Source: Mesotaenium endlicherianum (lineage: Eukaryota). From it: a stretch of 54,867 bases of DNA. Positions 15,030 through 37,175 of this stretch are shown here, in pieces. How positions within the stretch are numbered: position 1 is the stretch's first letter; each line of letters begins with the position of its first letter. The position numbers and the translations under genes were made by a program. The notes under the pieces are model-generated. The model worked only from the letters and a program-made list of their open reading frames with translations. It was not told the DNA's origin and ran no database searches. The DNA lies in NCBI GenBank assembly GCA_009602735.1, contig WELA01002438.1, positions 137,259 through 192,125 on the forward strand, given 5' to 3'.

Positions 15030-15165
15030 TGTCGTGCGGTAGGAGGTCGGGTGCGTATCAACGACACAAGCAATGCATAATATGCAAGCAGGCTGTGCTG
15101 CAATGAAGTCTATAATACATGTGGCTTTATAGCCAAACGATAGTCACGCGTCAAATGGTTTAATT
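15030..15165 (-). repeat. Element B repeat Y, terminal copy (136 bp)
   Basis: Direct repeat of 16179-16314 with 2 differences; carries the element 3' end. Confidence 0.95.
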
Positions 15166-16176
15166 AAGGAGTGTGTACTCTCCAGAGTGAGCACCTCAAG
15201 ACTGTAATCTGGTAGGAACACAACTAATGAAGTCTGGCCCAAAAGATCACTGGAAGCACATCATGATCTTCAAGAGTAGTCCTATGGCAGGGGGTATAAG
15301 CTGTGACTTTGCTCACCACTTGTGAAGTTCTTCTAGTGATTGGAAGCCAGCAAGGCTTGCTCTTCACAAGAGAGAGACTAAGTGATCCTGAAAACACAAG
15401 AGATAAAAGTGTAAGCTTTACTGATAATCTCTGTGACTTACAACTGGCATAATGGGACTTCTAAAAAGATGTTCCTCTAGGGACATCTCTAGCACTTATA
15501 CTCCTGAAAACCCGGCGTCGTATGCGGCGGATCCAATGCATGTAGTCACTCTAGGAGGCTCTCCTATGTCCACTAATGTGTACAAGGCATGTACTAGCAC
15601 TCCTATAGGCTAAGCATAACTCAAACCAATCAAAGCAAAGCACGTAGAATATGCTAAGTGTCTCTCATTGGTGGAGCTTACCTTGGGTAGTTCTACCTAG
15701 ATAGCGCCTCAAAAGTGAATCTGAAACTTGAGGAAGCTTCCTCTAGAAGTAGGTGATGCAGTCACCAAGTTATAGCCTCAATGATGCACTTATACTATGG
15801 AAATGCAAGACTTATGTAGTCTAAAGGGCTCGCGGATTTGTGCGCACAAAGCTAGGGGTCCTTGGGGTCACGAATAGTCAACATTGTCACCTTTGGGTGC
15901 ATTGAGTCACAAGTTGGCCATTTGGTGTGATTCCGCTAGGTGCCGAAAGGAGTGCGGACTAGATCGCGTCTATCTCGCTCGATAATTAACCAAATGACGC
16001 GAAACCGGTGCCATTCGGAAGATGCTTCGACGCGCTACACTTTGGTGACTCGGAAATCTAGAGAAGGTCAACATATGGATGCGTAAAGTCAATGCAAAGT
16101 TGGTCTTCCTAGGTTGATGGTTCACACACGTAGAGCTTGGGTTTGTACGTCAACCTCGACTTAATAATACATGACA
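15166..16176 (-). repeat. Element B repeat X, 3' copy (~1011 bp)
   Basis: Direct repeat of 36174-37175; roughly 15 substitutions plus 1-bp and 8-bp indels by eye. Confidence 0.95.
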
Positions 16177-16178
16177 GC

Positions 16179-16314
16179 TGTTGTGCGGTAGGAGGTCGGG
16201 TGCGTATCAACGACACAAGCAATGCATAATATGCAAGCAGGCTGTGCTGCAATGAAGTCTATAATACATGTGGCTTTATAGCCAAACGATAGTCACGCGT
16301 CAAATGTTTTAATT
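16179..16314 (-). repeat. Element B repeat Y, internal copy (136 bp)
   Basis: Lies between the G8 tract (16315-16322 on minus) and repeat X, separated from X by the dinucleotide GC. Confidence 0.95.
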
Positions 16315-16327
16315 CCCCCCCCAGCTC

Positions 16328-19300
16328 TCAGCCACCAGCTGAGGGGCTGTGATCACTGTCTAGAGCTAATGTAGTGCAGTCGCTATAAAACCAGTCTCCA
16401 GCTGGCACGCGGACCAACGGCGGGTCAAGGCAGCCGATGTGGAAGCCGAGGTTGCAGCTGTCGCAAAGCAGCATCCTGGCCTCCTGGCCGGGGCTGTGGC
16501 AGATCTGGCACGCCCAGTCCTTGGGCGGCCTCGCGTCGCGGGGACGAACCTGCATGTCAAGGTTAGGAAGGTGGCATGGTCCACAATTCTTTGTGTGGTC
16601 CTTGTAAAGACGGCCATCTGCGCCTTCCAGTTCCAAAACTCCTGACGCCAAGACACGCCTGACGCGTAGGATGACGGGCGAGCTGCTGGTGTCGAGGGTG
16701 TTCTTCGTCTGGCGTCGCAGGTACACGAAGTCACCTGCGGAGAACTGCAACACTCGCCGGCAATAGGCTCCTCCACGAGTCATGGCATACCTCAGTGTGT
16801 CGCGGTGCTGAGCAATGCTGAGGTTGTCCATGGCCATGGGCATCAGGCGTCGAAAGAGCTGTGCATGCTGCCCGATAAGAGCGCTCCACGTCTCGGGACT
16901 GTCCAAGTCCAGAACGTTCTCGGCCACGGTCCTGGCTGCTGCGGGCAGGACTGGCTGTCGGCCGTAGAGAAGGAAGTAGGGAGAATGCGAGGCCAAGGAG
17001 GCTTGCTTACTGAACCTGTACCCCATAGCCAACCATGGGAGGGCGTCGTCCCAGTGGGTGCTGTCGTGGGCCAGGCAGTACTTCCGCAGCCCAAGCTTGA
17101 CGGTCTGCACCATGCGCTCTGCGAGGCCGTCAGCCTGGGGATGGTCGCGGGAGGTGGTGCGGTGATCAATCATCGAGCGCTCGAGCAGCTTTTGAAAGCT
17201 GCCCTGGAACTCTTTGCCTTGGTTTGTGAGGACCTCAGCGCAGCCGCCAAAGCGGCTAAGGACCTATTCGAGGAAAGCCTGAGCAATCCCCTCACTGGCC
17301 TTGCTGGGCTGCGGCACAAGCTCGATCCATTTGGACATGTGCTCAATCATTACCAAGACATAGAGGTTGCCTCGACGAGACTTGGGCAGTTCCCCAGCCA
17401 AGTCAAGCGACCACCTGTAGAACAGTCCCTAAATAGGGAGAGGGCTGAGAGCGACGGTGCGGGCTGTGAAGCTCGAGCGCATTCGGTCGCAAAGTGTGCA
17501 GCTGCTGACGACGTCGGCGACAACCTTAGTCATGCCGTGCCACCAGTACTCAACCTGAAGGAGGCTGAGAGTGCGCTTAACACCGAAGTGTCCAAGCGTC
17601 TTGTGCACACGTTGCACCAGCTGGCTGCGTATAGCGGGCTCAGGAACCACCAGGACAGAGCCGTCCGCCATCATTCGCCGCATGCGCCCCTCCATGAAGA
17701 CGAAATCCCGGCTACGCTTGAGGACGCGGTCACGGTCGCGCGCACTAATGCCTGGGACCAACTCCTTGGCCGTGACGTACTGTAGCACCGGTGTGTTGTC
17801 CCACACGTCCTCGAGCGCGCGCTGCCAGCTGTCCTGCTCCTCAACTGCTGCCAAGGCCAGTCGTCGAGTGGTGACAGTCACCATGTCTAGGCTAGTGAGC
17901 CCTGCGGGCCGCACGTCGCGGTCAACGGTGAAGGCCAGGAATGCCGCTGCGTGCCAAGCCACTGGCTCATCCTCATCGTGGCGGGCTACCGTGAGGTCTC
18001 GCGAGGAGGGCAGCGGATTGCGGCTGAGGCCGTCAGCGTCCAGGTTCGTCGACCCTGGACGATGATGCACGTCAAAGGTGTACTCCTGCAAGATGAGCGC
18101 CCACCATGCGTACTTGCGCGTCAGGCGCTCCAACGTCATGAGCCACTTGAGTGGCTGATGGTCGGTGACCAAGCGGAAGTGGGTGCCATAGAGATAGTGC
18201 CTGAAATGCACAATTGCCCATACTGCTGCCAGGCACTCCCCCTCATAGGAGCCGTAGTTGCCCTCGGCACGGTTGTTGCTGCGGCTGGCGTACGCCACCA
18301 CATGCTTGAAGCCGTCATGCTCCTGTACCAGCACTGCTCCAAGCCCTGCCTGCGACCAGTCGGTGTGGAGGATGAAGGGCTTCTGATAGTCAGGCCGTCA
18401 TAGTACTGGGGCGCTCACCAACAACTCTTTGAGCTTGTCAAACGTTGCCTGCTGCTCTGATCCCCATACATAGGCAACGCCCTTGCATAGCAAGTCGTTG
18501 AGCGGCTTGGCCAGCTCGCTGAACCCAGGCACAAAGCGGCGATAGTAGTTGGCGATGCCAAGGAAGGCCCTCAACTGCGAGAGGTCGGTCGGAGGCGAGA
18601 TGCCTGTGATGGCCAAGATCTTGGCCAGCTGAGGAGCCAAACCACGGGAAGACAGAAGATGCCCGAGGTACTCCACCTCCCGGGTCCCAAAGGTGCACTT
18701 GCCTGGATGACACTTGAGCCCAACGGCCTCCAACAGTCCGGAACTGTAGTGATATGCGCCACGTGCTCCTCAAACGTCTCACTGAAGACGAGCACGTCAT
18801 CGATGTAGCACCGGGCAAAGGAGAGCCCTGCCGGCTCCTTATCCATGAGTCGCTAGAAGGTGGCAGGAGCGTTCTTCAAGCCGAAGGGCATAACCCTCCA
18901 CTCGTAGAGACGCTGCGATCCCCAAAAAGCCGTCTTATGCTGGTCCTCCTCCGCAATGGGTATCTGGTTGAAGCCCTGCCTCAAATCCAGCACCGAGAAC
19001 CAAGTACAAGCGCCGATGTCGTCAAAGATCTCGTCAGGGGTCGGCATAGGGTATCTGTCTTGCTCAGTGACCTTGTTAAGCTTACGATAGTCACCGCACA
19101 TCCTCTTCTCAGACCAGTTGCCTGAGGCGTCCTTCTTAGGTGGCATGACTATGGGCGCAACGTAGGTGGAGGCAGACTCACGAATGAGCTGACACTCCTC
19201 TAGCTTGCCTGTCTGCGTGCTAATCAGGTCGTCCTCAAAGCGGCTGTAGCGATAGCGCTTCTGGAAGATGGGCACGTCTGTCTGGAGGGGTATCCTTATA

Positions 19301-19420
19301 GGGTTGCCTGTGTAGCGCCCAAGATCGTGCATGCCGCTGGCAAAGCTGGCGCTGCGCCGTGCATCCAGCAATGCCGTTAGCTGAGCAGCCTGTGCCCTAG
19401 TGAGAGTTCCCCCCAGCTTC
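16328..19420 (-). pseudogene. pol: RT - RNase H - integrase - PHD finger region of element B pol, disrupted
   Basis: RMCGDYRKLN, MPFGLKNAPATF, YIDDVLVFS (RT); HTDWS...VAYASR...EGECLA (RNase H); HKTLGH...CTLC, WSLD, QADGLAER (integrase); C-terminal PHD at 16376-16510. Stops at 18853, 18398, 17429 and 17264, and a frameshift near 18740. Confidence 0.93.
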
Positions 19421-19869
19421 CAAGTAGGGACAGCTGGTGGTGGCTCCTGCGCTGCGGCTGGCGCCTCCTGCCCTGCTGCTGGCGTGGTCTGTGGGTCTGC
19501 AGGCGTCACCTGTCCTGCAGCTGGCTGCACTCGGCCTGCCTCGGGTGCCCTCTCCTCGGCAGCTGCTGCCATCTGCCCTACACCACCTGTAGGCGGCGGA
19601 GAGCGTGGAAAAAGAAACGGGGAACGAAACTTTCTGGGTCGCTGTGAGGACTCCTGTCTCCTCCTGTCCCCCCCCAGCAAACCAGAACGAGGACCACGAC
19701 AAGGCGCAGGCGGCTGCTGGGAAGCTGGACCCTCGCGCTGGGAATGCCAGGTCGTACTGGGCGGGGCGCGGCCGTCGCCGTCGGAATCTCAATCCATGGC
19801 GTCATAGAACTGGTCCATCTCAAGATGACGAGCCTGGGCGTAAAGGGGAGTCAGGGCGTGTGTCTGCAG

Positions 19870-20812
19870 GAGAAGCCACGTCAAGACGTTGGCATCGATA
19901 GCCTGGCCAAAGAGACGCACAAGTTGACCTTGGTGATGCTGTCCACCTGTGCGAGGTGCGGAGGGAAGCCCATCGCACGCTCCATCTCCACGGCATGGGG
20001 TCGTTGGAACATGCCAGTCTCGAGGTCAATGATCATGCCGCGCTGGTCGCCCACGTAGGCCGCGCTGTCGTAGCGACTCACGAACGTAGGAAGCGCCCGC
20101 GTGACGTCGCGGAGGACCTCACACTGGGCCTGAGAAGGATGCGGAAGGGCGACCACGCGCTGGGCCAGGCGCGCCACGTCGAGGATGGAGTCAACGTTGC
20201 GCGTGTGGCGTGGATGTGCGGCCGCTAACGCCTCAAGCGTGCCTGGCATGGCCAGGTTGGTGAAGTAGGCACGCACACGATGCGCGAAGGAACCAATCTG
20301 AGCGGCGTCGATGACGGCCTCACAACCGACGTAGCTGCTACAGAGGGCAAAGTCGGCATTGACGTTGGGCCGCGAATCGTGGCGGACAGCCACATCCTCC
20401 AACACCCAGACGAGCGTGTGCGGCGGCTGGCGGTCCTCAACCATGTTGAGGACGCGGAGCAGGTGCCAGAACAAGGCCGTATGCGGGTCACCGAGCGCGT
20501 TGCCCCGTCCCGCAATGGAGAAGCCCTGGCACTCCCAGCCAGCAATGATGAGGTCGATGGGCCCGAGGCGCGTGATGTGCTCGGCGATAATGTCGCGGAT
20601 GTCCATGGGCCAGTCAATCTGGGCGCGGTAGAAGGCATACTCAGGGAAGAGATCTGGGAAACGCTCGTGGCATAAGGCCATCTGCCTGCGGGCGACCTGC
20701 TGCGCCTCGCCATCGGGTCCACGTAGACGTACCGACGTACGGGGATGCCAGCCTGCAGGGTGGCCAACAACCCTGTCGCAATGCCGGCGAAGAGCTCGAC
20801 AAGGACAATGCC
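19870..20812 (-). pseudogene. C5 cytosine DNA methyltransferase domain (DNMT3-like motifs) within element B polyprotein, frameshifted
   Basis: Motif I LVELFAGIATG (20771-20803), motif II YVYVD, DIRDI, motif IV IDLIIAGWECQGFS (Cys 20529-20531), LFW, motif VI VLEDV, motif VIII AHRVRAYFTNL, motif IX EMERAMGFP, motif X LFGQAIDANVL (~19880-19915) in canonical order across three frames. Confidence 0.9.
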
Positions 20813-21654
20813 GCCGGGACGCTCGTCGAGCTGTGCGGTGTAGATAGGCGTAGGAAGGGGGCGACAGCCCAGGGCGGGATCGCCGGCCTGCGCTGGCGGT
20901 GGATAGGAGCGCAGCAGACTGTGCTGATGGGGCAACATGGGGAGGGCCGCCACTGCGAGCTCTGCGTAGTGGCGAGTAAGTCGAGGAATGCGCTCGAGCA
21001 GCGGCTGTGGACGAGCCGTGTGAGAATGTGCCTGATAAGTGCGCCAGCGCGCACGCGCGTCCTGCAAGGCCTCCTCGGGCACTAGGCGGGCCGGAGCCTG
21101 CGCGTCGCGCGTGCACTGCTGCTGCCACCCGTCCCTCGTTTGGTAATCGGCGTGTTGTGAAGCGGCGTGGGCCAGCTGCTCTGTGGCGGTGCGCTAGGGC
21201 AGCTGGGAATGCTGATCAAAGTACGAACGCTGACGCTCGCGAAGATCCGCCTGAAGGGGCACTGTACAGACGGAGCGCTCGTCCCAATGTGCTGCCTGTT
21301 GAGGACGGACGAGCTGACGTGGGGCGAGCTGGACTCGCGGGCGCAGCGGCAAAAGAGATGGGAGTCGGACGCGCTCCCGCTGGCTGCGCTGCATGGGCCC
21401 TGCGCGTGTTGCGTGCGGATGAGGATGACGGTCGCGGAGGCGCGCTGCGGTGCGGGCCACCTTATGAAGAGGTGACCCAGACGGCCCGTCGCCGGCTATG
21501 TGACTGCGCAAGACGTCGGCAGGCCAGCCACGCGGCGTCTGGTATAATGCGTGAGCTGCAATGGTGGAGGAAGACTGTGCGTCATGCTCGCGGGTGCGGA
21601 GATCGCGCGGACCGTCATACGGCGGTGTGACTGAGCGCGGGCGAGTCTCGCGCA

Positions 21655-21780: not shown

Positions 21781-22779
21781 GCCGGTCTAGGGGCAGAGTG
21801 CGACGTGCGAAGCGTAGAGCTGGCCCGGCGTAGGGGAAGGACCTGTATGCCGAGGACCGAGGATGCTGGTCCTGGCCACTGTCTGATGCGCACGTCCGGC
21901 ACGCGGGTTGATAGCGGAGAAAGGAACCGTGGAGGCAGTGCTGGCGGAGGCGCGACCTGGCCAGCCTGCGCTTAGGTTGTTGCCAGCGAACAAGTGCGTG
22001 ACGTCACGGCACTCGCTGCTGGTCAAACAGTCGTGCTGTATCGGACGACTAAGCCCGCCGGCGCATGGATGGGCTCGACGGGGCGCATGGATGGGCTCGA
22101 CGGGGATTGGCTGTGGTCTCGTGTGAGAGAGAACTGAAGCCGGGAGGCCCTGTAGGCTGGCGTCGAACGCGAGCTGTAGGCGTGGGCGGCGGTGGCTCTG
22201 CCGATGGCTGGGCTGCGGGCTCCTCTGCGGCCTCCTGGGACCACTCCTGCCACTCCTCCTCCTCGCTGCTCAATGACGCGTCGTCGGACCTGCCTGGGAA
22301 CGCTGCCTGCCTCATGGCCTCGTCCTCAGACGTGGTAGTGCGTGGCCATGAGTCGCCTGTCCTGTGCGACGGTGAGGGTGAGGGCAACTGGGAGGCGGCA
22401 CGTCATGCCGTACGCGGACGTGTGATCTTGAGGAGGGTCCGCTCGTCGCAGGACGCTGTGGCTGAGGTATGGCTGCTGCGGCTGTGGCTGCGTCATGAGC
22501 GTGAGCTGCAGCAGTAAGGGCAGCCGTGGCAACGGCGTGTGCCTCTACGGCGTCTGCCGCCATCTGACGCATCATGGCGTTATGCGCGGCGTAGATCCGC
22601 ACTGTCTCCCTGGCTTGTGCGGCCAGAGCGTCAGCCTGCTCCTGGGGCGTGAGGTGGAGCTTGGCACTCGACAGCTCGGGATCCTCCTTTTGCGTCTCCA
22701 GTAAGTCGGCGCCGACGGAGACCTCATCATCCTCGGCTCCCCCCTTATTTGTCTGAACTACAGACCAACCGCCATCCAG

Positions 22780-23190
22780 CGCCATGAAGCCGTAGAGGGC
22801 GGACTCAGCTGAGCAACGATCCAAGATGTCAAGTGGCACAGATGCAGTGCGGGTCCCCCCTGACTGCCAGTCGGGTCGATAGAAGACCCGCTCCACCCAG
22901 TTATCCACAGCGGCGCCGATAGGAAAGAGCACGTCCTGGCCAAGGAGCACGTCGAAGGTCTCGGAACGAGTGACCAACGCATGCCGGTGGATGGTCGTCT
23001 CATCCGGAGTGCCGGGCCGAAAGGTGAAGCGGAGGGCCAGCCGCGTGCGCCCGGTGACGATCTCGGAAGTGCCGGCAGCAGTGTTGATCCGCGTAGGCAA
23101 ATCCTCTAGGTCGGCTGACAAGAGGCCCAGCTGGCGGAAGTAGCGCAAGCTGATGAGGACTGGCTGGGCGCCAGTGTCGAACATGATGCG
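22780..23190 (-). pseudogene. Retropepsin-type aspartic protease domain of element B
   Basis: IMFDTGAQPVLIS active site and FDVLLGQDVL motif; same frame as gag, separated only by TAG at 23191-23193. Confidence 0.88.
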
Positions 23191-26100
23191 CTACGGGGCC
23201 TGCGTGTTGACCAGCACGATGCCCTGCAAATTATCCAAAAACGCAGCGTTAGGCGTGCTGATCATCCTGCGCTCATGCGCAGGTCGCGCGGGTGCGGAGA
23301 GCACCGCGGCTGCCGCGTCTGACGTTGGCCTGCCGTCAGAGGCGCGCTGGCTGGCCCTGCGCGACTGAAGCAGTAGCTGGGTCGCCTGCCGTGTGGCTTC
23401 CATCGACACGCCGAGCTCCGCGAAGGAGACTCCGGGCATGCGGTGAAGCGCCAGCGAGATGACCTCGGCGTTGAGCTGCACCGTGGTCATCGGCAAGGCC
23501 ATCGCGTGAGGCGAAAATGCCGCTGGCGCTGCTGGCGTGTCCAGCACGCGGAACGAGCGGGGCAGACGCGGCGCCTCCTCCATGCGACGCCCCTGATTCG
23601 GCCCGGCGCGCTTCTGTGCCATCGCTGGGCGTCCGGCTGCCACCAAAGCGGGCTTGCGTCGTGCGCTGCCGTCTGTTGTGCGGCCTCCGAGTGGCACTGT
23701 GCGTGCGCAGCAGGCCAGAATGGGGCTGCACGCGGCGGCAACAGCAGGCGCAGCCGCTGGTTTAGCGGGCAGACGAGCGGCTGGCACACGTGGCGCTGAT
23801 GTACCTGGCGCTGGTGTTCCCAGCGCGAACGACCCTGGCGCTGGCGCACCTGGCACTGGCGTTCCTGGCGCTGGTGCTCCCAGCGCGGACGCACCTGGCG
23901 CTGGTGCACCTGGCGCTGGCGCGCTCGGCGCTGGCGCTCCTGAGCATGCTTGCGCAGTTGCCGGCGCAGGTGCCAGGCTTGCTGGCTTAGCTGTCGGTGC
24001 TGGCGCTGCCTCGGCGACCGGAAGGCCGCCAGGTGGCACTGGCCCACCTGGTACTGGCGTCGTGAAATGCGCTGGCTCGGGTCCTCCTGCAGCTGGCGCC
24101 TCGGCGAACGCTGGTGCCTCCGGTGGAGCGGCTGCGAATGCCAGCGCTGCTTTGGGCGCAGGTGCTTCGGCCGCTGGCACGAACGCCGGAGATGGCGCAG
24201 GCTTGGCTGTTGGCAGCCTGACAAGTGGCGCTTCGAGGACGACCCTGGGCCTGCAAGGTCGCGTCGCCCGACCGGTGTTGGTGTCGGTATTGGCTGCCCC
24301 AAGCAAGGTACGTGGCGCCCTCCAGGTAGCGCGCGTGCTCGCCGGGACCCTCGCCACGCTCATCGCGAAGGCCCAAGGGTTTTGTGCGCAGCCAGGGTTT
24401 AAGCCCTGGCTTTGCGCAACCGTGTGCGCGCCGTCGCAGTTCCGAACGGAGACACGGCCGCCCAGCGCGATCAGGGAGGTCTCCCCCTGGCTCGGGATGG
24501 CAGTCGCGGCCGCCAGATCTGCGCTGGCTGGGTCGGACTGCGTGCGCGTGCCAAATGGCGGCACGTGTGCGCAGGTGCTGTACGCAGCGGCTGACGTGGC
24601 TGCCGTGAGGTGATCGCGTGGCGGGCTGCTGAGCGAGCGTCGCAGTGTTGTGCGCGGCGTGTGCGAGCGTGTGCAGAGATGCGCAGATGTGCAGCTGCCG
24701 TCAGGCAAAGTCTCGCCAGCCGCGCACGCGTCAGGTGCGACGGCTGCTGGCACGGCTGCCGGGACTGGCGCAGGGGCGGTTGCGGGGAGGCTGCCATGTG
24801 GCGCCTCCCAATCGCTCCTTGGATTGCGGGGGCGCGTGGCCGGTCCGGCTTCAAGGTCTGCGTCGGCTGCCTCGGACGCCGCTCGTGACACCCTCCCTCT
24901 TGCGCGGGCGTACGCCGAGGCCCCCGTAGCGCGAATTGCGTCGGCGCGGGGGTTTTGGGCGCAGCCAGGATTTAAACCCTGGCTTTGCGCAGCCGTGAGC
25001 GTGCCGTTGGCGCTCTGCACGGCAATCTGGCCGCACAGCGCAATCAGGGATGCTCCCTCCTGACTGGGAATGGCGATCGCAGCCGTCGAATCTGCGCTGG
25101 CAGTGCCGGACTGCGTGCACGCGCCACGTGGAAGGACGTGTGCGCCGCTGGCGTGCGCAGCTGCTGCTGTGGCTGCCGAGCTGCGATCTTGTAGCTGGCC
25201 GCTCGGCAAGCCTCGCGCCGCCGTGCGAGGTGTGAGCGGACGCGTGAGCGCGCGAGTGTGCGCGTGGCTGCCGGCAAGAGCGGCCTGGCCTGCCGGACAC
25301 GTGGCAAGGGTCGGCGCCTGCTGAACCCTGCTGCTTGCAGCAGCCAACAGGGTGAGACCCTTCTGGCGTTGCCGGCGGATGCGTAGGTCTGCGCCTGGGA
25401 TAGCGACGCGCAGAGCGGGGGGCGCTCCAGCCGTGTGTGCTGTAGTCGTGGTACTCAGCTGGCTAGCGCGCCCCGTCGCGACAGCTGTCGCTGCGCAGAC
25501 TGCCGAAGGCACTGCTGGCGTCAGCAGGGCGGCACAGGCCAGCGGGGCTGCTGAAGCTTGCGGCTCTGCTGGCGTGTGTGCCGGATCGTCAAGGGGCGCG
25601 TCAGGAGCTGCAGCGTCTATGACGCAGGGTAGCGGGACCGCGTGCGCCTGCAGCCTGCAATCTGGCAACCCGACCGAACGAGTGCAGCGACTGCTGACGG
25701 ACATCAGCGCAGGGTGCGCAGGTTTGGCAGAAGCGGCTGCACAGACGCCTGCGGCGCTGGTCGCCGTAGCTCTGTCGTGGGGCGGGCGCGTGCAAGGCTG
25801 CAGCGCTGCTATAGCGCCAGGTGCCAGCCTCTGGGGCTGCCACATGTTGGCGTGGTGAACGTGCGCAGGAGCTGCGCGGACGCCAGCTGTTGGAGTTGAA
25901 GCGTCGGACGGCGGGACGCGTGCGAAGAGGGCTCCGCATGCGTCGTAACTGTCGGTGGCGACGAGGCCGCGGAGTTTGGCGATCTCTGCGTTGACCTCTA
26001 CGAGGGCGTCGCTGACGCCGTCGAAACTGTAGTAATCGGCTCCGAGGGTCAGCGCGGCGTCCATCGTAGCCGAGGCTGCAGTCATCGAGGGACGTCCACC

Positions 26101-27148
26101 CGTGCAAGGGTTACGCATGCCCCGAAGTACTGCTGCTGGCGCAGGGCCGTCACGAGCGCGTCCGTTCTCGGCGTCGCGCTTCTTCTGCAGGCATACAATC
26201 TGCAGGTGGCCGGCCTTGCCACAGTACGTACAGTCACCGGGCTTGCCACTTTGCGCAATAGTGCAGTTCTGGCGAGAGTGGCCCGTCTTCCCGCAGGACC
26301 AAAAGGGGTCGCTCGTTGTGGCGGCCATGGAAATGCGGCCACGCGGAGCACCGCGCTGCTGGGTCTGCTGGGACAGCTGAGAGCGCTGGGGCTTCTGCTG
26401 CTGCTGGGGCTGGCGAGCCGGTGCTAGGCGCATCGTCGTGGATGGCAGCATCGAAGACTCTTGGCGTACGCCCGTGGATGCGAGGCCTACACGGTCGCTA
26501 ATGTTGCTCCGTGCGGCGGCCAAGCTCTGCTTCTCGACTGAGAGGTAAGCGTCCTCCAGCGAGTACTCGGAGCCGATGTGGTAGATGAGAGGAGCCATGG
26601 CTCGCTCCCTCAAACGTGGCTCTACGGCGCGCAAGAAGATCCCCGCTGCCTCCCGGTCAGTGACGGTGCCAACGTCTCGGCGAAAATGCGTCAAGCGGCG
26701 GTACATCATGCGGATCGTCTCATTCTTGCAACGGAAGAAGTGGTGCAGCTTGTACACCTTCTCCTCGGTCGCGGCCTGGAACTCCTTCCTGAGGACGTCC
26801 CAGAAGGCCTTGACCGGATCAGCGAGGGGGGTCTCCACTGGGGGTTCCCCCACAGGCTCTGTGCGTGCGTAGATCTCGTCACCCTTCTCACGGAATGTGT
26901 CACGAGCCTCGTAGAGGAGATAGCGCATGAGCGTATAGAACACGTCACGCTAAGTGAGCGCGGGCATCTTAAGCCTCGCGCTCACGAACTCAACCTCGAA
27001 CTCTGAGATTGTGTCGTCCAGATCACAGGTTCCTGGTCTGCCGCTGAAGCAGAAGAGGGAGGACCTGTCAGCCTTGACCTCGTGGTCACCTGCCATGGGA
27101 TACCAGGAATCGTGGTGAGCCCAATGGGAAGACGGCTTAGGGACAATC
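23191..27148 (-). pseudogene. gag: Gag of element B with very long Ala/Pro-rich extension (N-terminus at 35991-36123)
   Basis: Capsid-like helical region, zinc knuckles FWSCGKTGHSRQNC (degenerate) and CTYCGKAGHLQIVC; the frame continues across the nested insertion to ATG 36123 with one in-frame TAG at 26950-26952. Confidence 0.85.
23790..23945 (-). repeat. 15-bp minisatellite encoding APAPG repeats
   Basis: About 9-10 degenerate copies of ACCTGGCGCTGGTGC on +. Confidence 0.85.
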
Positions 27149-27893
27149 TGTAATGAATCAGTATATTAGTAGATATAATATTCATTTAAATATAATAGTT
27201 AATTTAGTTCAGCCTGCTGAACTTTAGTTAGTAGTCAGTCTGCTGAACTTTAGTTAATAATCAGTCTGCTGGACTTTACATAATTATCAGTTTAATGACT
27301 CGGCCAAAAGCAGCAGGCTGAAGTCAACTCAAGTCAGCTTGCTGACACATTCTTTGACAGCCAGCTGACTTCCGTACTCGGTAGCAGCGAACTGCCTTGA
27401 TATGCATCTAAGTGCGATATGCTAGATGAATGGCCAGATGACATCCCTATGATGGATGGCTATTCGGGATGATGGGAGATGGCGGTGGATTTGGTTAACC
27501 GAGGTCCTACCAACGTGGTTAACTCCCGGGTAGGCGGTGCCATCGCACTGACCGTTGAACAGTAAACTCATTCCATGTACATATGCTAGGCATTGCTCTC
27601 GAGTTCGGCATTCGGAAACGAGGCCAACTCTCTTGTACAGCTTACTGAGAGAGCTCTGAATCCAAGGCGAGAAGCCATTGATACGCACTGTCTTCTAACC
27701 TTGCTTATGTATGAGTTTACTGATTTGCATCATTGATGCTAGTTTACTCGCATTTGACTTACGAGTATTATTCCCTGCTAGTGTATTGTCCTTTGCCGTT
27801 TAACTAGTTAACGGAAATACCATAAAGATTACTTGCTGATATAAAGATCTTTATTAATTGTTAATCGCCTATTTGGTAAGTCGATTCATTTCA
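27149..27893 (+). repeat. 5' LTR of family A copy 2
   Basis: TGTAATGAATC...GATTCATTTCA imperfect terminal inverted repeat. Confidence 0.97.
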
Positions 27894-27894
27894 G

Positions 27895-27906
27895 TGGTAT
27901 CGGAGC
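27895..27906 (+). promoter_or_regulatory. Primer-binding site, initiator tRNA-Met type
   Basis: TGGTATCGGAGC one base after the LTR; differs by one base from the common plant iMet PBS TGGTATCAGAGC. Confidence 0.85.
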
Positions 27907-27927
27907 AGTTATCACAGTCTTCTTTGT

Positions 27928-29406
27928 ATGGTAAGGACAAGGTCTCAAACTAGCAACTCCCGAGACATGGAGAACCAGGATAACGAGAATGTCGAAAACC
28001 AGGCGGAAAGCCATGTAGCGGGAAACCGTACCTATTCGGAAGCAGTAGCGGATACTGCAGCTAGGGAGGCTGCAGATGAGGCAGCTGCTATTGCCTCAGT
28101 CGCAGCTCAGCAAGCTGAGGAGGAGATAGCCAGACTAGAAGCTGAACAAGTAGCAAAGGCCGCTGAAGATATACAAAGGAGGGAAGGACAGCCAGCTGAC
28201 GAGCGCACTGTTGAAGAACTTATGGCATCAAGGGCCAATGTTCTGAACCCACCTCCTGCCGTACAACTCAATGTACCCCTAGGTCAAATACGTGACCGGC
28301 TGAATGCGGCAGGAATTGCTGCTGCAGGAGCAAGAGGGATTGTTGAGGACACTACTCAGCGAGTAGATGCCAATGCTGCTGCTGCATTTGCTAATCTACC
28401 ACCCCAAAATGTAGACTTGGGAGCATTGTTCGTTCAGATGCAGTCGCAAATGGCGACCATGTATCAGTCCCAGCAGGAGGACAAAAGAATCATAATGTCC
28501 CTACTCCGGGACAGAGACCAACTGGGGTCTCACACCACTAGTGGTGGTGGCCGAGGGCCTAGTAAGCCCAAGCCGAAACCTCCCCAGGACTATGATCCTG
28601 AGGGAAACAGAAAATATTACCTGATCAAGTTTCTCGCGGATGTTGAGCAGTGGCTGGAGAACTACCCAGAACTGCAAGATTACGAGAAGGTCAGGCACAC
28701 CGGTGCGCTACTGAAAGGCAGTGCCGCAGACTGGTGGCTTTACTGGAAGGAAGAGCGTAAGGCTCGGCAACTCGGTGACCCTACGTGGGTAGAGTTTGTC
28801 GAGAAGTTGCATGAGAAGTTTGATGTCATCAACCAGCAGGAGAAAGCTATCTATGCGATGATCTCCCTGACACTGAAGCAGACCACTTCAGTTGCTGAGT
28901 TTGCTCAAAAGTTCCAAGAGAACATGATGAAGCAGCCTGATTTGCCAGAACGGTATAGGATAGCATACTTCAGGTATGGCTTGAAATCCGAGGTCTCTGG
29001 TCATTTTGCTGAGAAAAAGTATGAGAAACTGGCTGACTTGATCCAGGATGCTGACGCCTGGGATCAGCAGCAGTTCAATCACAAGCGCCAGAGTAACGCT
29101 TTGGTGTCTAAGATTGTCAAAAAGCCCCACGGTTCCTACAATGCAGTTGAAGGAGACCAGGCTGAGGATAATCAGGGTGATGAATATGAGTATGAGTACA
29201 ATGCTATTCAGTCTAGAGGTAGAGGTGGTCCCTCTCGAGGTGGCTATGGAAGGGGTGGTGGTAGGACTAAGCCGAGACCAGCCTCAGCAAAATCTACTTG
29301 CTACCATTGTCAGCAGAAAGGCCACTACAGAGAACAGTGTCCGGTCAAGCACCTGCCTAAGGTCGAGAGAAAAGACCAGCCTTTAAAAGACAGCAACAGT
29401 CAGTAA
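27928..29406 (+). CDS. gag: Gag, 492 aa, family A copy 2
   Basis: LKGSAADWW...TWVEF...[14 protein letters not shown] retrotransposon capsid motifs and a CCHC knuckle. Confidence 0.95.
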
Positions 29407-32400
29407 TCCAGTCTACTGACTGTGAGGATGCTAGAGATAGTGAGTCGTCACTAGCTGCCCTCGTAGCAGGTATTATGGGTCCTGCTGAACTGGATTCACT
29501 ATGCATGCCTGACAACCAGATAAAGGAGACCATCAGCAATATAGACGTCCAGAGAGTGCACACTCTGGATGCTCTTGTTCCACCTGATGTCCAACATTTC
29601 TTTGCTACGTCAGGAGAACAATGCGAAAGTCAGGAAAAGACAGTCCCCCCTATCCTACTGCATTGCATGATTGCAGGTAGGAAGGTGAGGGCATTTGTTG
29701 ACGGAGGGGCGTCACATACTTTTATCCACAAGGACTTAGTTAAGCGGCTAAGGCTGCCTACTGTCACCCAAGGGAATAGAAAAATATTCCTTGGAGATGC
29801 CTCAAGTATCCCGGGAGGAGTTATAACCAAGCCTATTGAGGTCCAGTTAGGTTCTGGCATTGCAGTTCTAACTGAAACGCTTACATTTGAGGTACTCAAC
29901 ACTGGCTTTTATGATCTCGTGCTAGGCAGGTCCTGGCTTAATAGACATCAAGCTGAAGTGTGTTGGAGCAGAGGTACAGTTAAAGTGAGAGGAGCCAGTG
30001 ATGGGCAGACTGACTTGGCACCCACCAGTGCTCTTCCTCTTGTCCTGTGTGGATGGCAAATGAAGGAAAAGAAGAGGCTTCCAGAAGGATGCAAGTTGCT
30101 GAATGCAATGGAGTTCGTCAAAAGCTGGAACCAGAAGGAAGACAGAATGTTCTGTCTGCTGCTAAGAGAGGTACCTCCTCAACCTGAAGAAGTGGTTGAG
30201 AAAAAGGTACACCCTCCGGAACACCCTACTGCTGCAAACATTGTTGCTCAGTACACGGATGTGTTTAATATGCCTCCAGGACTACCCCCTAAGCGGGAAG
30301 TAGATCATAGGATTGATTTATTACCTGGTAGCCAGCCACCCTGGCAACGCACGTATGGCTTGTCTTATTTGGAGAGTGAGGAGTTGAAAACACAGATTGC
30401 AGAGCTGGAGGAAAATGGTTACATTTCTCCCAGTAAATCACCGTACGGCGCACCTATCCTATTTGTTAAGAAAAAGGATGGCAGTATGCGGATGTGTGTG
30501 GATTACAGAGCCCTGAACAGAATTACAGTAAAGAACAAGTATGCTTTACCCAGAATCGAGGACTTGCTTGATACCCTGTCTGGCGCTAAGGTGTTCAGTA
30601 AGATAGATCTCAAGAGTGGTTATCATCAAATCAGAATTGCTGAGGGGGATGAACACAAGACTGCTTTCCGCACACGTTATGGACACTATGAGTTCAACGT
30701 GATGCCATTTGGACTGACTAATGCTCCTGCTACCTTTATGGGTGCTATGAATGACATTTTCAGACCTTATTTGGATAAGTTTGTGCAAGTTTTCCTGGAT
30801 GATATTTTAATTTTCTCTAAAGATGAAGCTCAGCACACTGAACACTTAAAGAAAGTGCTGGACACTCTGCGGAAAAATCACTTGTATGCTAAAATGAGCA
30901 AGTGTGATTTCTTTAAGGAAAGTATTGAATTCTTAGGCCACGTTGTCAGTAAAGAGGGCATCAGTGTGGATCCTAAGAAAGTCCAGACCATAAGGGACTG
31001 GCCAGTACCACAGTCTGTCTCTGAAGTTAGATCCTTCCTCGGGTTGGCTAACTACTATAGGAGATTTATTGAGAATTATTCCACAAAGGCCAGTAAACTG
31101 ACTGACCTTACTAAGAAAGACATCGGGTATGTGTGGGGGGAAGAGCAGCAGGCTGCCTTCCAGACCCTTAAAGATGCCCTTTGTTCTGCCCCAGTGCTAG
31201 CCGTGTATGACCCCAGCAAACCGGTGCAGGTGGTTACTGATGCCTCTGATTTTGCCATGGGTGCTATTTTGTTGCAGCCTGCTGACAAAACCACAAAGGA
31301 TGGTAAGGTACGGCAGGAGTGGCATCCTGTGTTGTATGAGTCTATGAAATTTAATCCAGCGGAGATTAATTACTCAGTGCATGATAAAGAGCTGCTAGCT
31401 ATCATTCATGTACTCAAACAGTGGAGAGCATACTTACATGGTAAAGCTTTTAAGGTGATTACAGATCATCTAGCTCTGACCCACTTTCAGAAGAAGTCCA
31501 AGCTGTCGAGGAGGGAGAACCGCTGGAGCCAGATGCTGGAGCAGTTCCAAGTCCAGATCGACTACAAACCAGGGAAGTTGAATCCTGCTGATGCACTCTC
31601 TAGAAGACCTGACTTGCAAGAAAGGAACTTTAGTCAGCATACTGTAGATAAAGTCCTGTGTGCACTCACTTCACTAAAGGTGAAAAAGTCCTTCCTTGAA
31701 CAACTTAGGAAAGCCTACCTTTCTGACCCAACATTTGAGCCCAGCCCCACTACTGGTATGTGTCGTGCTACCGCACTCGGGTATAAGCTCAAGGGAGGGG
31801 TCTGGGTGACTGAAACCACTTCAGGCAGGCTGAAGCTGGTCATTCCTAATAATTTGGAAATAAGGTCTCTCTTACTGAGTCAAGCTCATGACAGTCTCCT
31901 GGGTGGACATTTGGGGCAGGCCAAAACTGTTGGCAAACTGGCAAAACATTATCATTGGGAGGGGTTACCCCGGGAGGTCTTGAAATATGTCAAGTCCTGT
32001 GACCAGTGTCAGAGAAATAAGTCTCGGCACACACCACCCGGAGGTCTCTTGCAACCGCTACCCATCCCAGCGGGACGCTGGGAAACTATATCCATGGACT
32101 GGGTGGTCTCACTACCAAGAACTGCCAACGGGCATGATTCAATACTGGTAGTCGTGGATAAACTGACAAAAATGGTCATTTTTATCCCCACAACTGTCAA
32201 AGTGACTGCACTCGAAACAGCGAGACAGTTTTACAACCATGTAGTATGCCAACATGGGCTCCCTTCTAATATCATCTCAGACAGAGACTCAAAATTCACC
32301 TCTAAGTTCTGGAGAGCTTTAATGGGGTTAATGGGAGTCAAACAGCTGCTCAGCACAGCAAACCACCCTCAGACTGATGGGCAGACTGAAAGAACTAACC

Positions 32401-33188
32401 GAGTTCTGCAGGAGGTGCTGAGAGCATATATTAACCAAAAACAAGATAATTGGGATGACCTGTTGCCTCAAATTCAGTTTGCGGTCAACAGTGCGGTGCA
32501 CGCGTCAACGGGCAAAACTCCTTTTGAACTCAGCCTGGGTAGAGTCCCTAGGTCTCCTCTAGATGTGTTAGGGGAATCTTTAACTCACCCTGAAGGAAAT
32601 GACAACCCGGTCTCCCTCCAGTTAACTCAGGAGTTTGCTGACACCCTGTCAGAAGTCCAACGAAACTTGCACACGGCCCAGCACAACCAACAAAAATACG
32701 CTAATCAACACCGTTGGGAACTGACATTTTCCAAGGGGGATTTAGTCAAACTGCATTCTGAGCACCTGTACCTCCCTGGTGTGGTCAAGAAAAAGCTTGG
32801 CCCTGTCTGGGTCGGTCCCTATTCGGTGGTCCGTCGTGTCGGTCAGAATGCTTACAAACTGAACATGTCAGCCGAATACAAGGGGCACCCGATCTTTAAT
32901 GTCTCCTTCCTGGAACCGTACATCAAAGGTGATACACTGTTCACAGGTCGGTTCCCTGTCCAACCGGGACCGGTTCCCGCTGTCCGGGACGGCGACCCTG
33001 AGTATGAGGTCGATGAGATTTTAGACTCTCGCTCGGTACGTCGATTGTGTAAATATGTCATGAAATACCTCATTCGATGGAAGGGTTACGATGCCTCTGG
33101 GGACACTTGGGAGTTTAAGGACCACTTGACCAATGCCAAAGGGGCGTTGACACGGTTCCACCTTCGGGCCGCTGGAGTCCCTCCATAA
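29382..33188 (+). CDS. pol: Pol polyprotein with chromodomain, family A copy 2 (first ATG 29475)
   Basis: Same motifs as copy 1; slippery heptamer 29382-29388 and hairpin 29396-29423. Confidence 0.96.
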
Positions 33189-33455
33189 CTGTCATTTCAG
33201 TTGACACGGGAAGGTGACAGGCAGTCCTGTCTCCATTTAAGTTGGAGGGGAAAATATATGACAGTTAGTGAGCGAGAGCGATAAAAACACACTCATACGT
33301 TTATGTGTAGCGCATCGCAACTACGTCAACTTTTAGCAATCATCCTGTAAGGTAAACAGCAGCGAAGCCACTATACTAAATACTAACATACTTCCTGCAA
33401 TCCCTATGACAAAGGTCCATATCCTACTAACTTGTGCCCTGGTTACATGTGCAGG

Positions 33456-35132
33456 ATGGCGCCCACCACACAAAAGGAGGACAGAAAGCGCAAGGCAGAA
33501 GAAGCCAGGAGGACAATGGAGCAATACCAGAAGGAGCTGGCGGCGACGTCCCTCACCAGGAGAGAACAAGAAAGGGTCCGCAAACAACAAGAGGCGGCAG
33601 AAGAGGCACAGAGGAAGAAGGATCAGGAAGCGGAAAACCTCAGGAAGGCTGAGGAGGAGAGACAGAAGAAACAGCAAGAAGAAGCGGCAGCGGCAGAAGA
33701 GGAGAAAAGAAAAAAGATTGAAGCGGACAGACAGAAGAGCTTGGCCACTTACAGGTATACTGTGGTGGGTGGCCAAAACTTCGATAACCTGAAGGAAGCA
33801 TTGCTGGCAGCCCAGGAGATCAACAGGCTGGAACAGACAACACTGCTACAGAAGGAAGGAGCTACAGCACTGGACAGGTACATCGAGACACACACCGGCG
33901 TGGTCCTTTACGAAGATTATGCTAAGATGGTGGGCTATACAGCAGAGCAGGCCCGGTATCTCGCAGATGATTCAGAGGACAAGCCGGTCCCCATACCGGG
34001 AATAGTGGGAGATCAGAGACTCATCCGGATGGTGAGCATGCGGCCCGATAGCTTTAAGGATACGGTATTCTACCTCACACTCCTGCCAGCTTACAATGAA
34101 GTTGAGAGAAGGAGCTGGGAGTACTTGGCCAGGGAAGCAGGACAGCAGATGTTCTCTCCCCACTGGTTCCCGTGTAAACTGAGGAAGGCTGAGCACGGAC
34201 CCCAGTACTACCAGCAGCCAACAGACTGGAGGTGGATGACCGTCACAAATAAGAAGCAGGAGTGTGACCGAGCCCAACCGGATGACTTCCACTATGGCCT
34301 AGACGGCTATCTCATCCTACCACCTCACATTGCCCCTTGGGACCCCAGGCTGAATGGATGCCTGAGCAATATGAATGCAGAGACCAAGGAACATAGGAGG
34401 AGGGGAAGAGACTACTTCTCTAAGGGAAAGCATGCCTTTGTCAAATGGGCAAAGAATGCAGGCCGGATAGATATCAGTAGGCTGAAGGCCAAGCAACCTC
34501 CAGCGCGCCCTAAGAAAGGGAGGTCGGTAGACTACTCCATGTCTACTAGGGAGCAGGACGACTTAGTGGACGAGACCCCTACTCTCTCCGAGGAGGAGGA
34601 TGAGGAGGATGAGGAAGAAGAACAAGGCAGAGGAGAAGCATCAGCAGCAGGTACTCAGGATACCCAGGGACAGGCAGTGGCACTTCCTAAAGAACCACGA
34701 TCAGGTGTGTGGAATGTGATCCCCGTTATGGCGACAACTGGACCCCGCGCTCGCTCCCCCAGCCCACCTGCCCAAGCAGGGGAAGAAGCTGATCTGACTG
34801 TACTGGGCAGCAGACACAGACAGAAATCCCCAGAGGACAGGGGTGCCAGAAGAGGGACACGCGGGTGGGCCAGAGGTATGCCAGCCTCCCCCTCCGCTCA
34901 GGGGCATGTACCTCTAGCCAATGTATTTCAGCATCCTACTGGAATGCCTGTCTATGTGGGCATCAACACCCAAGTGGTTGAAGAGCAGGCTACCATCCTT
35001 CGTTCTCCTCGAGGTCCAACTTTAGAGCAAACCGGGTTCTTTAGAAGGCCAGCTGACAGACCTAGAGGGCTGTCCAGATCTAGGTCCAGATCTCCGTCCC
35101 CTGATCCTGAAGCCCCAGGAACCACCCCTTAA
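33456..35132 (+). CDS. Additional ORF3 of family A copy 2
   Basis: Protein identical to 4378-6054. Confidence 0.85.
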   Translation: MAPTTQKEDRKRKAEEARRTMEQYQKELAATSLTRREQERVRKQQEAAEEAQRKKDQEAENLRKAEEERQKKQQEEAAAAEEEKRKKIEADRQKSLATYRYTVVGGQNFDNLKEALLAAQEINRLEQTTLLQKEGATALDRYIETHTGVVLYEDYAKMVGYTAEQARYLADDSEDKPVPIPGIVGDQRLIRMVSMRPDSFKDTVFYLTLLPAYNEVERRSWEYLAREAGQQMFSPHWFPCKLRKAEHGPQYYQQPTDWRWMTVTNKKQECDRAQPDDFHYGLDGYLILPPHIAPWDPRLNGCLSNMNAETKEHRRRGRDYFSKGKHAFVKWAKNAGRIDISRLKAKQPPARPKKGRSVDYSMSTREQDDLVDETPTLSEEEDEEDEEEEQGRGEASAAGTQDTQGQAVALPKEPRSGVWNVIPVMATTGPRARSPSPPAQAGEEADLTVLGSRHRQKSPEDRGARRGTRGWARGMPASPSAQGHVPLANVFQHPTGMPVYVGINTQVVEEQATILRSPRGPTLEQTGFFRRPADRPRGLSRSRSRSPSPDPEAPGTTP

Positions 35133-35245
35133 GGTGACAGGCTGAAAAGATAGTCAGTAAGGGAGGCTGGTCAGGGTCAGTTTCTTTATTTAAAGCTTTT
35201 GCAGTTTAATGTTGTCGAGGCGACAACAAGTTAAGTTGGAGGGAT

Positions 35246-35990
35246 TGTAATGAATCAGTATATTAGTAGATATAATATTCATTTAAATATAATAGTTAAT
35301 TTAGTTCAGCCTGCTGAACTTTAGTTAGTAGTCAGTCTGCTGAACTTTAGTTAATAATCAGTCTGCTGGACTTTACATAATTATCAGTTTAATGACTCGG
35401 CCGAAAGCAGCAGGCTGAAGTCAACTTAAGTCAGCTTGCTGACACATTCTTTGACAGCCAGCTGACTTCCGTACTCGGTAGCAGCGAACTGCCTTGATAT
35501 GCATCTAAGTGCGATATGCTAGATGAATGGCCAGATGACATCCCTATGATGGATGGCTATTCGGGATGATGGGAGATGGCGGTGGATTTGGTTAACCGAG
35601 GTCCTACCAACGTGGTTAACTCCCGGGTAGGCGGTGCCATCGCACTGACCGTTGAACAGTAAACTCATTCCATGTACATATGCTAGGCATTGCTCTCGAG
35701 TTCGGCATTCGGAAACGAGGCCAACTCTCTTGTACAGCTTACTGAGAGAGATCTGAATCCAAGGCGAGAAGCCATTGATACGCACTGTCTTCTAACCTTG
35801 CTTATGTATGAGTTTACTGATTTGCATCATTGATGCTAGTTTACTCGCATTTGACTTACGAGTATTATTCCCTGCTAGTGTATTGTCCTTTGCCGTTTAA
35901 CTAGTTAACGGAAATACCATAAAGATTACTTGCTGATATAAAGATCTTTATTAATTGTTAATCGCCTATTTGGTAAGTCGATTCATTTCA
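35246..35990 (+). repeat. 3' LTR of family A copy 2
   Basis: 745 bp, preceded by TTAAGTTGGAGGGAT and followed by TSD CAATC. Confidence 0.97.
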
Positions 35991-36123
35991 CAATCAGAGG
36001 AAGCACGAGTGCCGGCTGTTCCCCTTCAGAGGGTTCAGTGACAGTACTGAGATCGGAGTCTGAGTCTTCTCCACTAACCCCTTTGTAGTAAGGCTGGTAA
36101 GCACGCCCACTACGGGTAGGCAT
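35991..36123 (-). pseudogene. gag: Displaced N-terminus of element B gag
   Basis: Translates MPTRSGRAYQPYYKGVSGEDSDSDLSTVTEPSEGEQPALVLPLI and joins in frame to 27143 once the insertion and one TSD copy are removed. Confidence 0.8.
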
Positions 36124-36173
36124 ACGCTGAAGATTCTAATTGCGTGCAGGCAAAGAGAGATCTGTTTAGAAGT

Positions 36174-37175
36174 AAGGAGTGTGTACTCTCCAGAGTGAGC
36201 ACCTCAAGACTGTAATCTGGTAGGAAAACAACTAATGAAGTCTGGCCCAAAAGATCACTGGAAGCACATCATGATCTTCAAGAGTAGTCCTATGGCAGGG
36301 GGTATAAGCTGTGACTTTGCTCACCACTTGTGAAGTTCTTCTAGTGATTGGAAGCCAGCAAGGCTTGCTCTTCACAAGAGAGAGACTAAGTGGTCCTGAA
36401 AACACAAGAGATAAAAGTGTAAGCTTTACTGATAATCCCTGTGACTTACAATTGGCATAATGGGACTTCTAAAAAGAGGTTCCTCTAGGGACATCTCTAG
36501 CACTTATACTCCTGAAACCCGGCGTCGTATGCGGCGGATCCAATGCATGTAGTCACTCTAGGAGGCTCTCCTATGTCCACTAATGTGTACAAGGCATGTA
36601 CTAGCACTCCTATAGGCTAAGCATAACTCAAATCAATCAAAGCAAAGCACGTAGAATATGCTAAGTGTCTCTTATTGGTGGAGCTTACCTTGGGTAGTTC
36701 TACCTAGATAGCGCCTCAAAAGTGAATCTGAAACTTGAGGAAGCTTCCTCTAGGAGTAGGTCACCAAGTTATAGCCTCAATGATGCACTTATACTATAGA
36801 AATACAAGACTTATGTAGTCTAAAGGGCTCGCGGATTTATGCGCACAAAGCTAGGGGTCCTTGGGGTCACGAATAGTCAACATTGTCACCTTTGGGTGCA
36901 TTGAGTCACAAGTTGGCCATTTGGTGTGATTCCGCTAGGTGCCGAAAGGAGTGCGGACTAGATCGCGTCTATCTTGCTCGATAATTAACCAAATGACGCG
37001 AAACCGGTGCCATTCGGAAGATGCTTCGACGCGCTACACTTTGGTGACTCGGAAATCTAGAGAAGGTCAACATATGGATGCGTAAAGTCAATGCAAAGTT
37101 GGTCTTCCTAGGTTGATGGTTCACACACGTAGAGCTTGGGTTTGTACGTCAACCTCGACTTTATAAATCATGACA
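36174..37175 (-). repeat. Element B repeat X, 5' terminal copy (~1002 bp)
   Basis: Matches 15166-16176; begins TGTCATG in element sense; not followed by repeat Y or a TGG PBS. Confidence 0.95.

Follow-up and report, generated by a model that had tools for sequence, protein, structure and literature searches.

The window analysed here, a stretch of 54,867 nt of Mesotaenium endlicherianum DNA (assembly GCA_009602735.1, contig WELA01002438.1, positions 137,259–192,125, forward strand), holds between positions 15030 and 37175 a retrotransposon, read on the minus strand, in which split direct repeats take the place of two complete long terminal repeats (LTRs). Self-comparison of the window gave the order X1 - gag/pol - G8 - Y1 - GC - X2 - Y2 in element sense, and the X, Y, GC and G8 coordinates of the initial annotation all held. 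Aligned over about 1 kb, X1 (37175–36174) and X2 (16176–15166) differed by 15 substitutions, with 10 gap columns, and Y1 (16314–16179) and Y2 (15165–15030) by 2 substitutions in 136 positions, corresponding to the same divergence of 1.5% in both repeat pairs. The outer termini of the element were TGTC at its start and GACA at its end, and GTAG (CTAC on the plus strand) flanked it on both sides as a 4-bp target-site duplication (TSD). Taking out exactly 4 bp put the adjacent host repeat unit (80% identical) back in register, in keeping with the interrupted host tandem repeat that the annotation had described around a CTAC duplication. The features of the element, from its 5′ to its 3′ flank, were as follows.

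37176–37179, no strand: TSD on the 5′ side, CTAC on the plus strand
36174–37175, minus: X1; starts with TGTCA, the left integrase end; holds the promoter, transcript start and a U5-like part; has no CA where it stops at the primer boundary
36503–36508, minus: TATA-like box TATAAG in X1, 30 nt before the predicted self-primer
36465–36478, minus: predicted self-primer (transcript 5′ end) in X1, complementary to the primer-binding site at 12 of 14 positions
36160–36173, minus: predicted primer-binding site (PBS), directly after X1 and not of TGG type; the majority sequence of 17 family contigs is a perfect primer complement
23194–26949, minus: long gag-like open reading frame (ORF) without a Pfam match; contains two CCHC-like knuckles and an extension rich in Ala and Pro
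22315–23190, minus: aspartic protease ORF (Pfam)
20258–20810, minus: C5 cytosine methyltransferase domain within pol (PF00145, E 3e-8), frameshifted; a homologous domain is present in many relatives
18574–19788, minus: reverse transcriptase (RT) with YIDD, interrupted by one stop and one frameshift; Ty3 Gag-Pol is among the best solved-structure matches
17432–18397, minus: RNase H and integrase HHCC zinc domain (Pfam)
16331–17428, minus: integrase core and C-terminal PHD finger; D, N replacing D, E; two stops
16315–16322, minus: polypurine tract (PPT) G8, adjoining Y1 directly
16179–16314, minus: Y1, the first part of the LTR as defined by reverse transcription; CA end
16178–16177, minus: GC spacer between Y1 and X2
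16173–16182, no strand: internal integrase attachment (att) junction, (G/A)ACA-GC-TGTC; the perfect palindrome GACAGCTGTC in relatives
15166–16176, minus: X2; TATA-like box at 15500–15495, primer-like site at 15470–15457 (13 of 14 complementary); sense RNA depth of the family steps up near 15439
15030–15165, minus: Y2, joined bluntly to the end of X2; its terminal GACA is the right integrase end
15026–15029, no strand: TSD on the 3′ side, CTAC on the plus strand

Coding content and integrity of the element

A Pfam run on 66 reading frames of the span (65 stop-free stretches of at least 90 aa and a 54-aa integrase piece) returned protease, C5-methylase, RT, RNase H, H2C2, rve and PHD domains. 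A tyrosine recombinase gave no match in these frames, and the HHCC/DDE integrase without a recombinase that had been read from the sequence alone was borne out by the H2C2 and rve matches. The pol order of protease, RT, RNase H and integrase is that of Ty3/gypsy elements. Against the PDB, the best RT matches (E ~1e-22) included the Ty3-G Gag-Pol, with retroviral RTs at 1e-4. At its integrase's C-terminal end, the outer element has a PHD finger instead of a chromodomain, the latter being confined to a nested element (see below). The second catalytic D of the integrase was N in the window copy and D in 22 of 23 aligned relatives. With this D-to-N replacement, and with the stops and frameshifts in pol, the window copy is dead.

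Judged by its pol order, Gypsy-type RT, HHCC and DDE integrase, TG...CA ends and short TSD, the outer element is a Ty3/gypsy lineage with a split-repeat layout. Three further Ty3/gypsy features, namely a PBS directly after a CA end, a PPT directly before a TG start and two full LTRs, were absent from the outer element and from all of the 54 distinct relatives described below, in which the PBS follows X (no CA) and the PPT precedes Y (no TG).

The initial annotation had raised mis-assembly at 16176–16314 or 36174 as a concern. There were no N runs between 15030 and 37175; the N-run gaps of the window (44790–45331, 50447–50469, 52059–52077 and 54482–54511) all lie outside the element. The joint between Y2 and host DNA was crossed without differences by a contig of run X1, which may be the source sample, and in 17 contigs of that run the end of X was joined to the primer-site sequence. 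Contigs of run X5 crossed Y/GC/X, and contigs of runs X5 and X7 crossed PPT/Y. With the joints recurring in contigs of other runs, mis-assembly of the element is unlikely.

Recurrence of the split layout in relatives

The integrase-PHD piece had 292 longer homologs at E ≤1e-20, and among the 120 matches listed the named ones were from green algae and a liverwort, the highest-scoring being a K. nitens protein at 54% identity. A scan of a viral contig collection found no relative. Our census covered 80 related metagenome loci with 47–59% protein identity, of which 60 gave a usable Y behind the integrase; 54 of these were distinct (53 once L023 and L030, which share the same flank, are merged). 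Of the 20 excluded loci, most break off shortly behind the integrase or are interrupted by insertions; in L007 and L037 the contig runs out within PPT-Y, and in L064 unrelated sequence comes after a G-run.

A G-rich tract adjoined Y in 54 of the 54 distinct relatives. In 31 of them Y continued through two nucleotides into X (Y-nn-X), and the remaining 23 stopped at Y1 and ran into the flank; these numbers include L025 and L068, which were reassigned by eye from script counts of 29 and 25. The whole X-internal-Y-nn-X-Y form was present in 6 distinct elements, with a perfect 4-bp TSD in 5 and a TSD matching at 3 of 4 positions in 1. Nine Y-ending elements had a visible 5′ end, and here the 4-bp TSD was perfect in 6, matched at 3 of 4 positions in 2 and was absent in 1. 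Among the Y-ending elements, L008, L036, L044, L072, L074 and others read X-internal-PPT-Y with a 4-bp TSD and have no terminal repeat whatever.

A canonical PPT-X joint was found in none of the 54 distinct PPT-Y relatives, and Y followed the 5′ X in none of 18 distinct copies. Relatives with two full X+Y LTRs, which would have pointed to a one-off rearrangement, were therefore not among the loci compared, and the question of recurrence raised by the initial annotation is answered by the return of the split layout, including the full form with 4-bp TSDs. Hence, the split layout is a trait of the clade and not a peculiarity of one copy. Two loci were set aside as candidates for other arrangements. 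L004, with GC before X, was considered as a mirror form (X-Y-GC-X-internal-PPT-Y) and rejected, the sequence upstream being host and not Y; the partial extra X of L043 was read as an old nested insertion.

Priming, internal junction and integration

Since X1 is not followed by TGG, a tRNA-type PBS was discarded for the outer element. Instead, the 14-base stretch next to X1 complements a site within X, at 13 of 14 positions in X2 and 12 of 14 in X1, 30 nt behind TATAAG; in a shuffle control, 3 of 1000 sequences reached a 13-mer with at most one mismatch. In the window's own family the PBS was a perfect complement of the primer as the majority of 17 contigs of run X1, and in run X7 the primer site and the PBS were each shorter by one base. 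Among 15 copies of a second family (L051-type), the majority motif at TATA+30/31 was the complement of the majority PBS at 13 of 13 positions, and primer/PBS pairs taken across families differed at 5–8 of 13 positions. For a third family (L079-type), the PBS was predicted from the TATA+31 site before inspection, and the prediction matched. This comparison excluded L070, which is an X2, and the duplicates L041, L067 and L037. A PBS able to pair with the 5′ end of the RNA made from the element itself, and hence self-priming as in Tf1, is predicted; this pattern has been described for Tf1 and Tj1 (PMC4600332).

In a stranded polyA RNA run (X22), first-mate depth on the plus strand rose from 18 to 61 to 108 across 15479–15288, which corresponds to element sense provided that the library was prepared in the usual stranded way, and the ends of 11 molecules fell at 15439, some 30 nt inward of the predicted start. 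The transcript would start in the middle of X1 and end in X2. Its first 13–14 nt would, by their complementarity, serve as a Tf1-like primer for the minus strand at the X1 end, and the G-tract, by its position, would prime the plus strand at the start of Y1. A minus strand from the end of X and a plus strand from the start of Y would give Y-GC-X as the LTR defined by RT, with neither TG nor CA at its ends. To the initial annotation the 3′ X+Y unit looked like a complete LTR; the LTR made by RT would be Y-GC-X instead.

The CA and TG ends lie head to head inside Y-GC-X, as GACA-GC-TGTC. This palindrome followed a G-tract and a Y of ~110–200 nt in seven repeat families (window, L051-type, L079-type, L011, L018, L068 and L069); those of them that were compared had no other similarity save one 27-nt match at the end of Y. 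The spacer in the 31 Y-nn-X loci was GC in 13, GT in 8, AC in 6, AT in 3 and TC in 1, and all variants except TC are those expected if GC decays from C to T on one strand or the other. If each strand were cut after CA, in staggered fashion, the palindrome would leave CA-3′OH ends with 2-nt 5′ overhangs, which are the usual substrate of an integrase.

The PPT/Y, X/PBS and Y/GC/X joints were fixed, and the X2/Y2 joint was variable. In 22 independent L051-type units, the X/Y joint was blunt in 7, lacked 2 nt in 6 and had 1–3 extra nt in 4; 4 had other small deletions, and 1 had a deletion of ~240 nt at a microhomology. Of two L079-type units, one had an 18-nt filler and the other a deletion plus 2 nt. 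The joint types did not cluster when placed on a tree of the coding sequence next to them (13 changes, against a shuffled mean of 13.9; 72 of 200 shuffles were as low). Identity between Y1 and Y2 within an element was above the between-element mean in 14 of 16 cases. The X/Y joint looks repaired rather than copied, its imprecision being as expected from end joining. In one contig of run X1, X and Y are separated by an additional G (16314–15173 joint), which may be a base left over from the polypurine tract.

Textbook LTR elements integrate a linear complementary DNA (cDNA) with att sites at its ends, and joined circles are regarded as by-products. If priming takes place where the sequence puts it, the att sites of the present element cannot be the ends of its cDNA. 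The suggestion of the initial annotation, a gypsy lineage with a non-canonical replication cycle, is supported, in that the layout is recurrent and the cycle very likely non-canonical. We consider it fairly probable that the ends of the cDNA are joined first and that the DDE integrase then cuts the internal palindrome. In its linear form this cDNA would read (Y-GC-X)-internal-PPT-(Y-GC-X), with TG and CA absent from its ends. Its X and Y ends would be joined imprecisely, by host end joining or by a jump of RT, and the integrase would cut the palindrome of the 5′ LTR copy on both strands, each time behind CA. Once inserted with duplication of 4 bp, the product would be X-internal-PPT-Y-GC-X-Y. 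The X-internal-Y form could result if one end came from each palindrome, if a one-LTR circle were cut, or by later Y-to-Y recombination.

Several points weigh against this order of events or against the priming on which it builds. None of the 18 distinct 5′ X copies had the mirror form, nor did any of the 9 elements that end at Y and whose 5′ end is visible, which disfavours a symmetric closed circle cut at random; since a symmetric two-LTR circle has two palindromes, and a cut at the 3′ one alone would produce the mirror form, an asymmetry must be added. Its source may, as a guess, be that the 5′ LTR becomes double-stranded earlier. The model is built on integrated copies, from which the layout and its recurrence, the fixed and variable joints and the TSDs are read directly, and from which we infer the cDNA, circle and cleavage steps of the cycle. 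The loci were drawn from few metagenome datasets, so that most are copies of two families and represent independent insertions, not independent origins. A match at TATA+31 was present in only 1 of 3 L079-type 5′ copies, and old single L051-type copies were weak at the primer match, with 1–6 mismatches. The RNA step comes from one run whose strandedness is assumed, and its reads derive mostly from other copies of the family (8 of 338 at ≥99%). The junction tree is weakly resolved (2 of 20 branches starred), the joint labels were assigned by eye, and the T or TC added at some joints could be primer-site remnants or small duplications. One contig of run X7 reads X-end, Y, GC, X-start, with fewer than 31 letters on either side, and is possibly a graph collapse.

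The same product, with the same imprecise X/Y joint, would arise if cutting came before joining, an order that we regard as rather unlikely. Here the integrase would cut the palindrome of the linear cDNA and insert the new ends. The original ends, X and Y, would then remain as a break in the chromosome, repaired by the host to the full form through end joining or to the X-internal-Y form through Y-to-Y annealing. This would account for the 23 of 54 elements that end at Y1 (6 of 9 with a perfect TSD), as well as for the filler and microhomology joints. Yet the Y of Chlamydomonas Gypsy-7 and -9 is only 6–8 bp long and is likely too short as a free arm unless joined to X, and cutting first leaves the absent mirror form unexplained.

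It is improbable that the element is copied in the manner of PAT and Ngaro, from an RNA running from X1 to Y2 with template switches that rebuild both split repeats and an integrase that inserts the exact product. The A1-B1-A2-B2 order is common to PAT and Ngaro as described (PMC4157794), but the promoter, primer site and RNA depth step all lie in mid-X, the PPT adjoins Y, the X/Y joint varies between copies independently of the tree, and the 66 frames hold no recombinase. It is hardly credible that an ordinary element with two LTRs was rearranged once or mis-assembled, since, decayed as this copy is and with a nested element inside, its joints recur in other runs' contigs, in a curated library and in 31 of the 54 distinct relatives, and a canonical PPT-X or Y-PBS joint was absent from the loci examined.

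Known systems and neighbouring repeats

The closest description in print is of KnitGypsy-Dnmt3 of Klebsormidium nitens, to which one sentence in the legend to Fig. 4c ascribes DIRS-type repeats with Gypsy domains (de Mendoza 2018, PMC5890265). Compared by description, it and the window element are alike in their Gypsy domains, a C5-methyltransferase in pol and a DIRS-like repeat order; that description includes no PPT, primer, att junction, TSD or mechanism. In the literature searched, the name KnitGypsy-Dnmt3 was confined to this paper.

A second parallel is found in Chlamydomonas, where the left LTR of the active Gypsy-7a_cRei is reported to be without the last 8 bp of the right LTR, and where one strain carries 86 recent insertions of this element (Craig et al., PMC9940879). 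In the library of that paper, 8 of 11 internal 3′ ends examined (Gypsy-2a, 2b, 3, 6, 7a, 7b, 9b and 9c) finish in a copy of the last 6–52 bp of the LTR followed by gc, whereas canonical ends are found in Gypsy-1 and -4 and 5a seems to be reversed. In Gypsy-7a exactly the 8 bp of the legend are duplicated, and 9 of 11 matches to GACAGCTGTC in the library lie within ~60 nt of a G7–G9 run on one strand. A Y-gc piece, with a Y of 6 to ~52 bp, is hidden at the ends of the records labelled internal for Gypsy-2, -3, -5a, -6, -7, -9 and later ones. Gypsy-7a_cRei thus resembles the window element in the Y-gc at its internal end and in its PHD finger, a likeness drawn from repeat ends and domains. The Chlamydomonas elements differ in their shorter Y (6–52 bp) and in that the internal regions of Gypsy-7 and -9 start with TGG, which suggests tRNA-type priming; the Gypsy-7a legend places the PHD before the integrase, and the authors annotate these as ordinary LTR elements. 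What is new here is that Gypsy-7a, active in Chlamydomonas laboratory strains, is by its repeat ends split in the same way, with an 8-bp Y.

Other systems share single traits with the window element, which has a PHD finger and split repeats. Tf1, Sushi and Tcn1 are chromoviruses with two full TG...CA LTRs. Like it, they are described as having a PBS complementary to the 5′ end of their own transcript (PMC4600332, PMC6317226). PAT, TOC1, Kangaroo and Ngaro have, as described, the same A1-B1-A2-B2 split direct repeats (PMC4157794). Unlike these, the window element has a DDE integrase, a protease, a PPT, TG/CA ends and a 4-bp TSD, and no tyrosine recombinase; the likeness to PAT, TOC1 and Ngaro noted in the initial annotation therefore stands for the repeat order, and as a sign of kinship it looks superficial. 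In retroviruses the palindrome arises by end ligation, on a side path, and a circle-precursor model for retroviral integration was reportedly put forward in 1984. In the window element, by comparison, it is encoded, has a fixed 2-bp spacer and is apparently the sole source of att ends. The cut proposed here is akin to the cleavage of retroviral 2-LTR circles, in which a DDE integrase acts on a palindrome of two att ends: HIV-1 integrase is reported to cleave a palindromic 2-LTR junction in vitro (PMC1905944; see also PMC1180852 and PMC4372172).

An internal junction or a mechanism of this kind was not found in the published literature searched, the REM1 paper, Craig's 2021 thesis and Repbase reports being beyond its reach. 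Prior publication, which the initial annotation had left in doubt, therefore applies to the layout (legend in PMC5890265), and the mechanism is apparently unpublished. The layout is real and clade-wide; the mechanism is strongly suggested by the sequences but unproven. On balance, we lean towards a large green-lineage branch of Ty3/gypsy elements with att ends inside the LTR, every insertion of which would have to proceed by cDNA end joining and integrase cleavage of an encoded att-att palindrome, with the circle junction as an obligatory intermediate; it would range in Y from 6 to ~200 bp and include tRNA-type and self-primed members, one of them active in Chlamydomonas laboratory strains. 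If so, it would be a natural DDE-integrase system dependent on junction cleavage and an end-joining step, would account for the Klebsormidium split repeats and the 8-bp LTR asymmetry in Chlamydomonas, and would suggest a route to split repeats without a recombinase. With Gypsy-7a_cRei the model is open to a direct test. Such elements would likely be missed or wrongly annotated by LTR finders, above all those of the X-internal-Y form; 23 of 54 end at Y1.

Within the 5′ leader of the outer element lies a second retrotransposon, absent from the initial annotation, which makes up 8.8 kb of the span 15030–37175 and is separate from, and younger than, the outer element.

27149–35990, plus: nested chromodomain Gypsy; LTRs of 742–745 bp with 3 differences, a TGGTATC-type PBS and a 5-bp TSD, CAATC

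A further copy of this element lies at 1–6888 (plus); the two are 98.7% identical, and gag and pol are open in both. Both carry an extra 581-aa ORF between pol and the 3′ LTR (33387–35132 and 4309–6054), with no clear Pfam match. An older, solo-LTR-like copy of the nested element's LTR, ~80% identical, was present at 38111–38797 (minus).

The coding region of the outer element and its relatives gave some further observations. The gag-like ORF (23194–26949, minus) encodes 1252 aa with a long Ala/Pro-rich stretch, and contains a 15-bp tandem array (23780–23942) and a 573-bp internal duplication (24159–24673 and 24732–25246, 70%). A search for homologs of the methyltransferase domain returned a single match. 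The 612-aa Marchantia protein P0032 contains the C-terminal part of the integrase and the PHD finger, at 55% identity, and is possibly a domesticated or degenerate copy. Many relatives, including L066, L068 and L069, have a further conserved domain after the PHD finger, with DPW/F-x-G-x-G and TSPWF-like motifs (in alignment A1: P0034, P0036, P0048, P0051, P0056, P0087, P0105 and P0109), and from these motifs it looks like a second methyltransferase-type fold.

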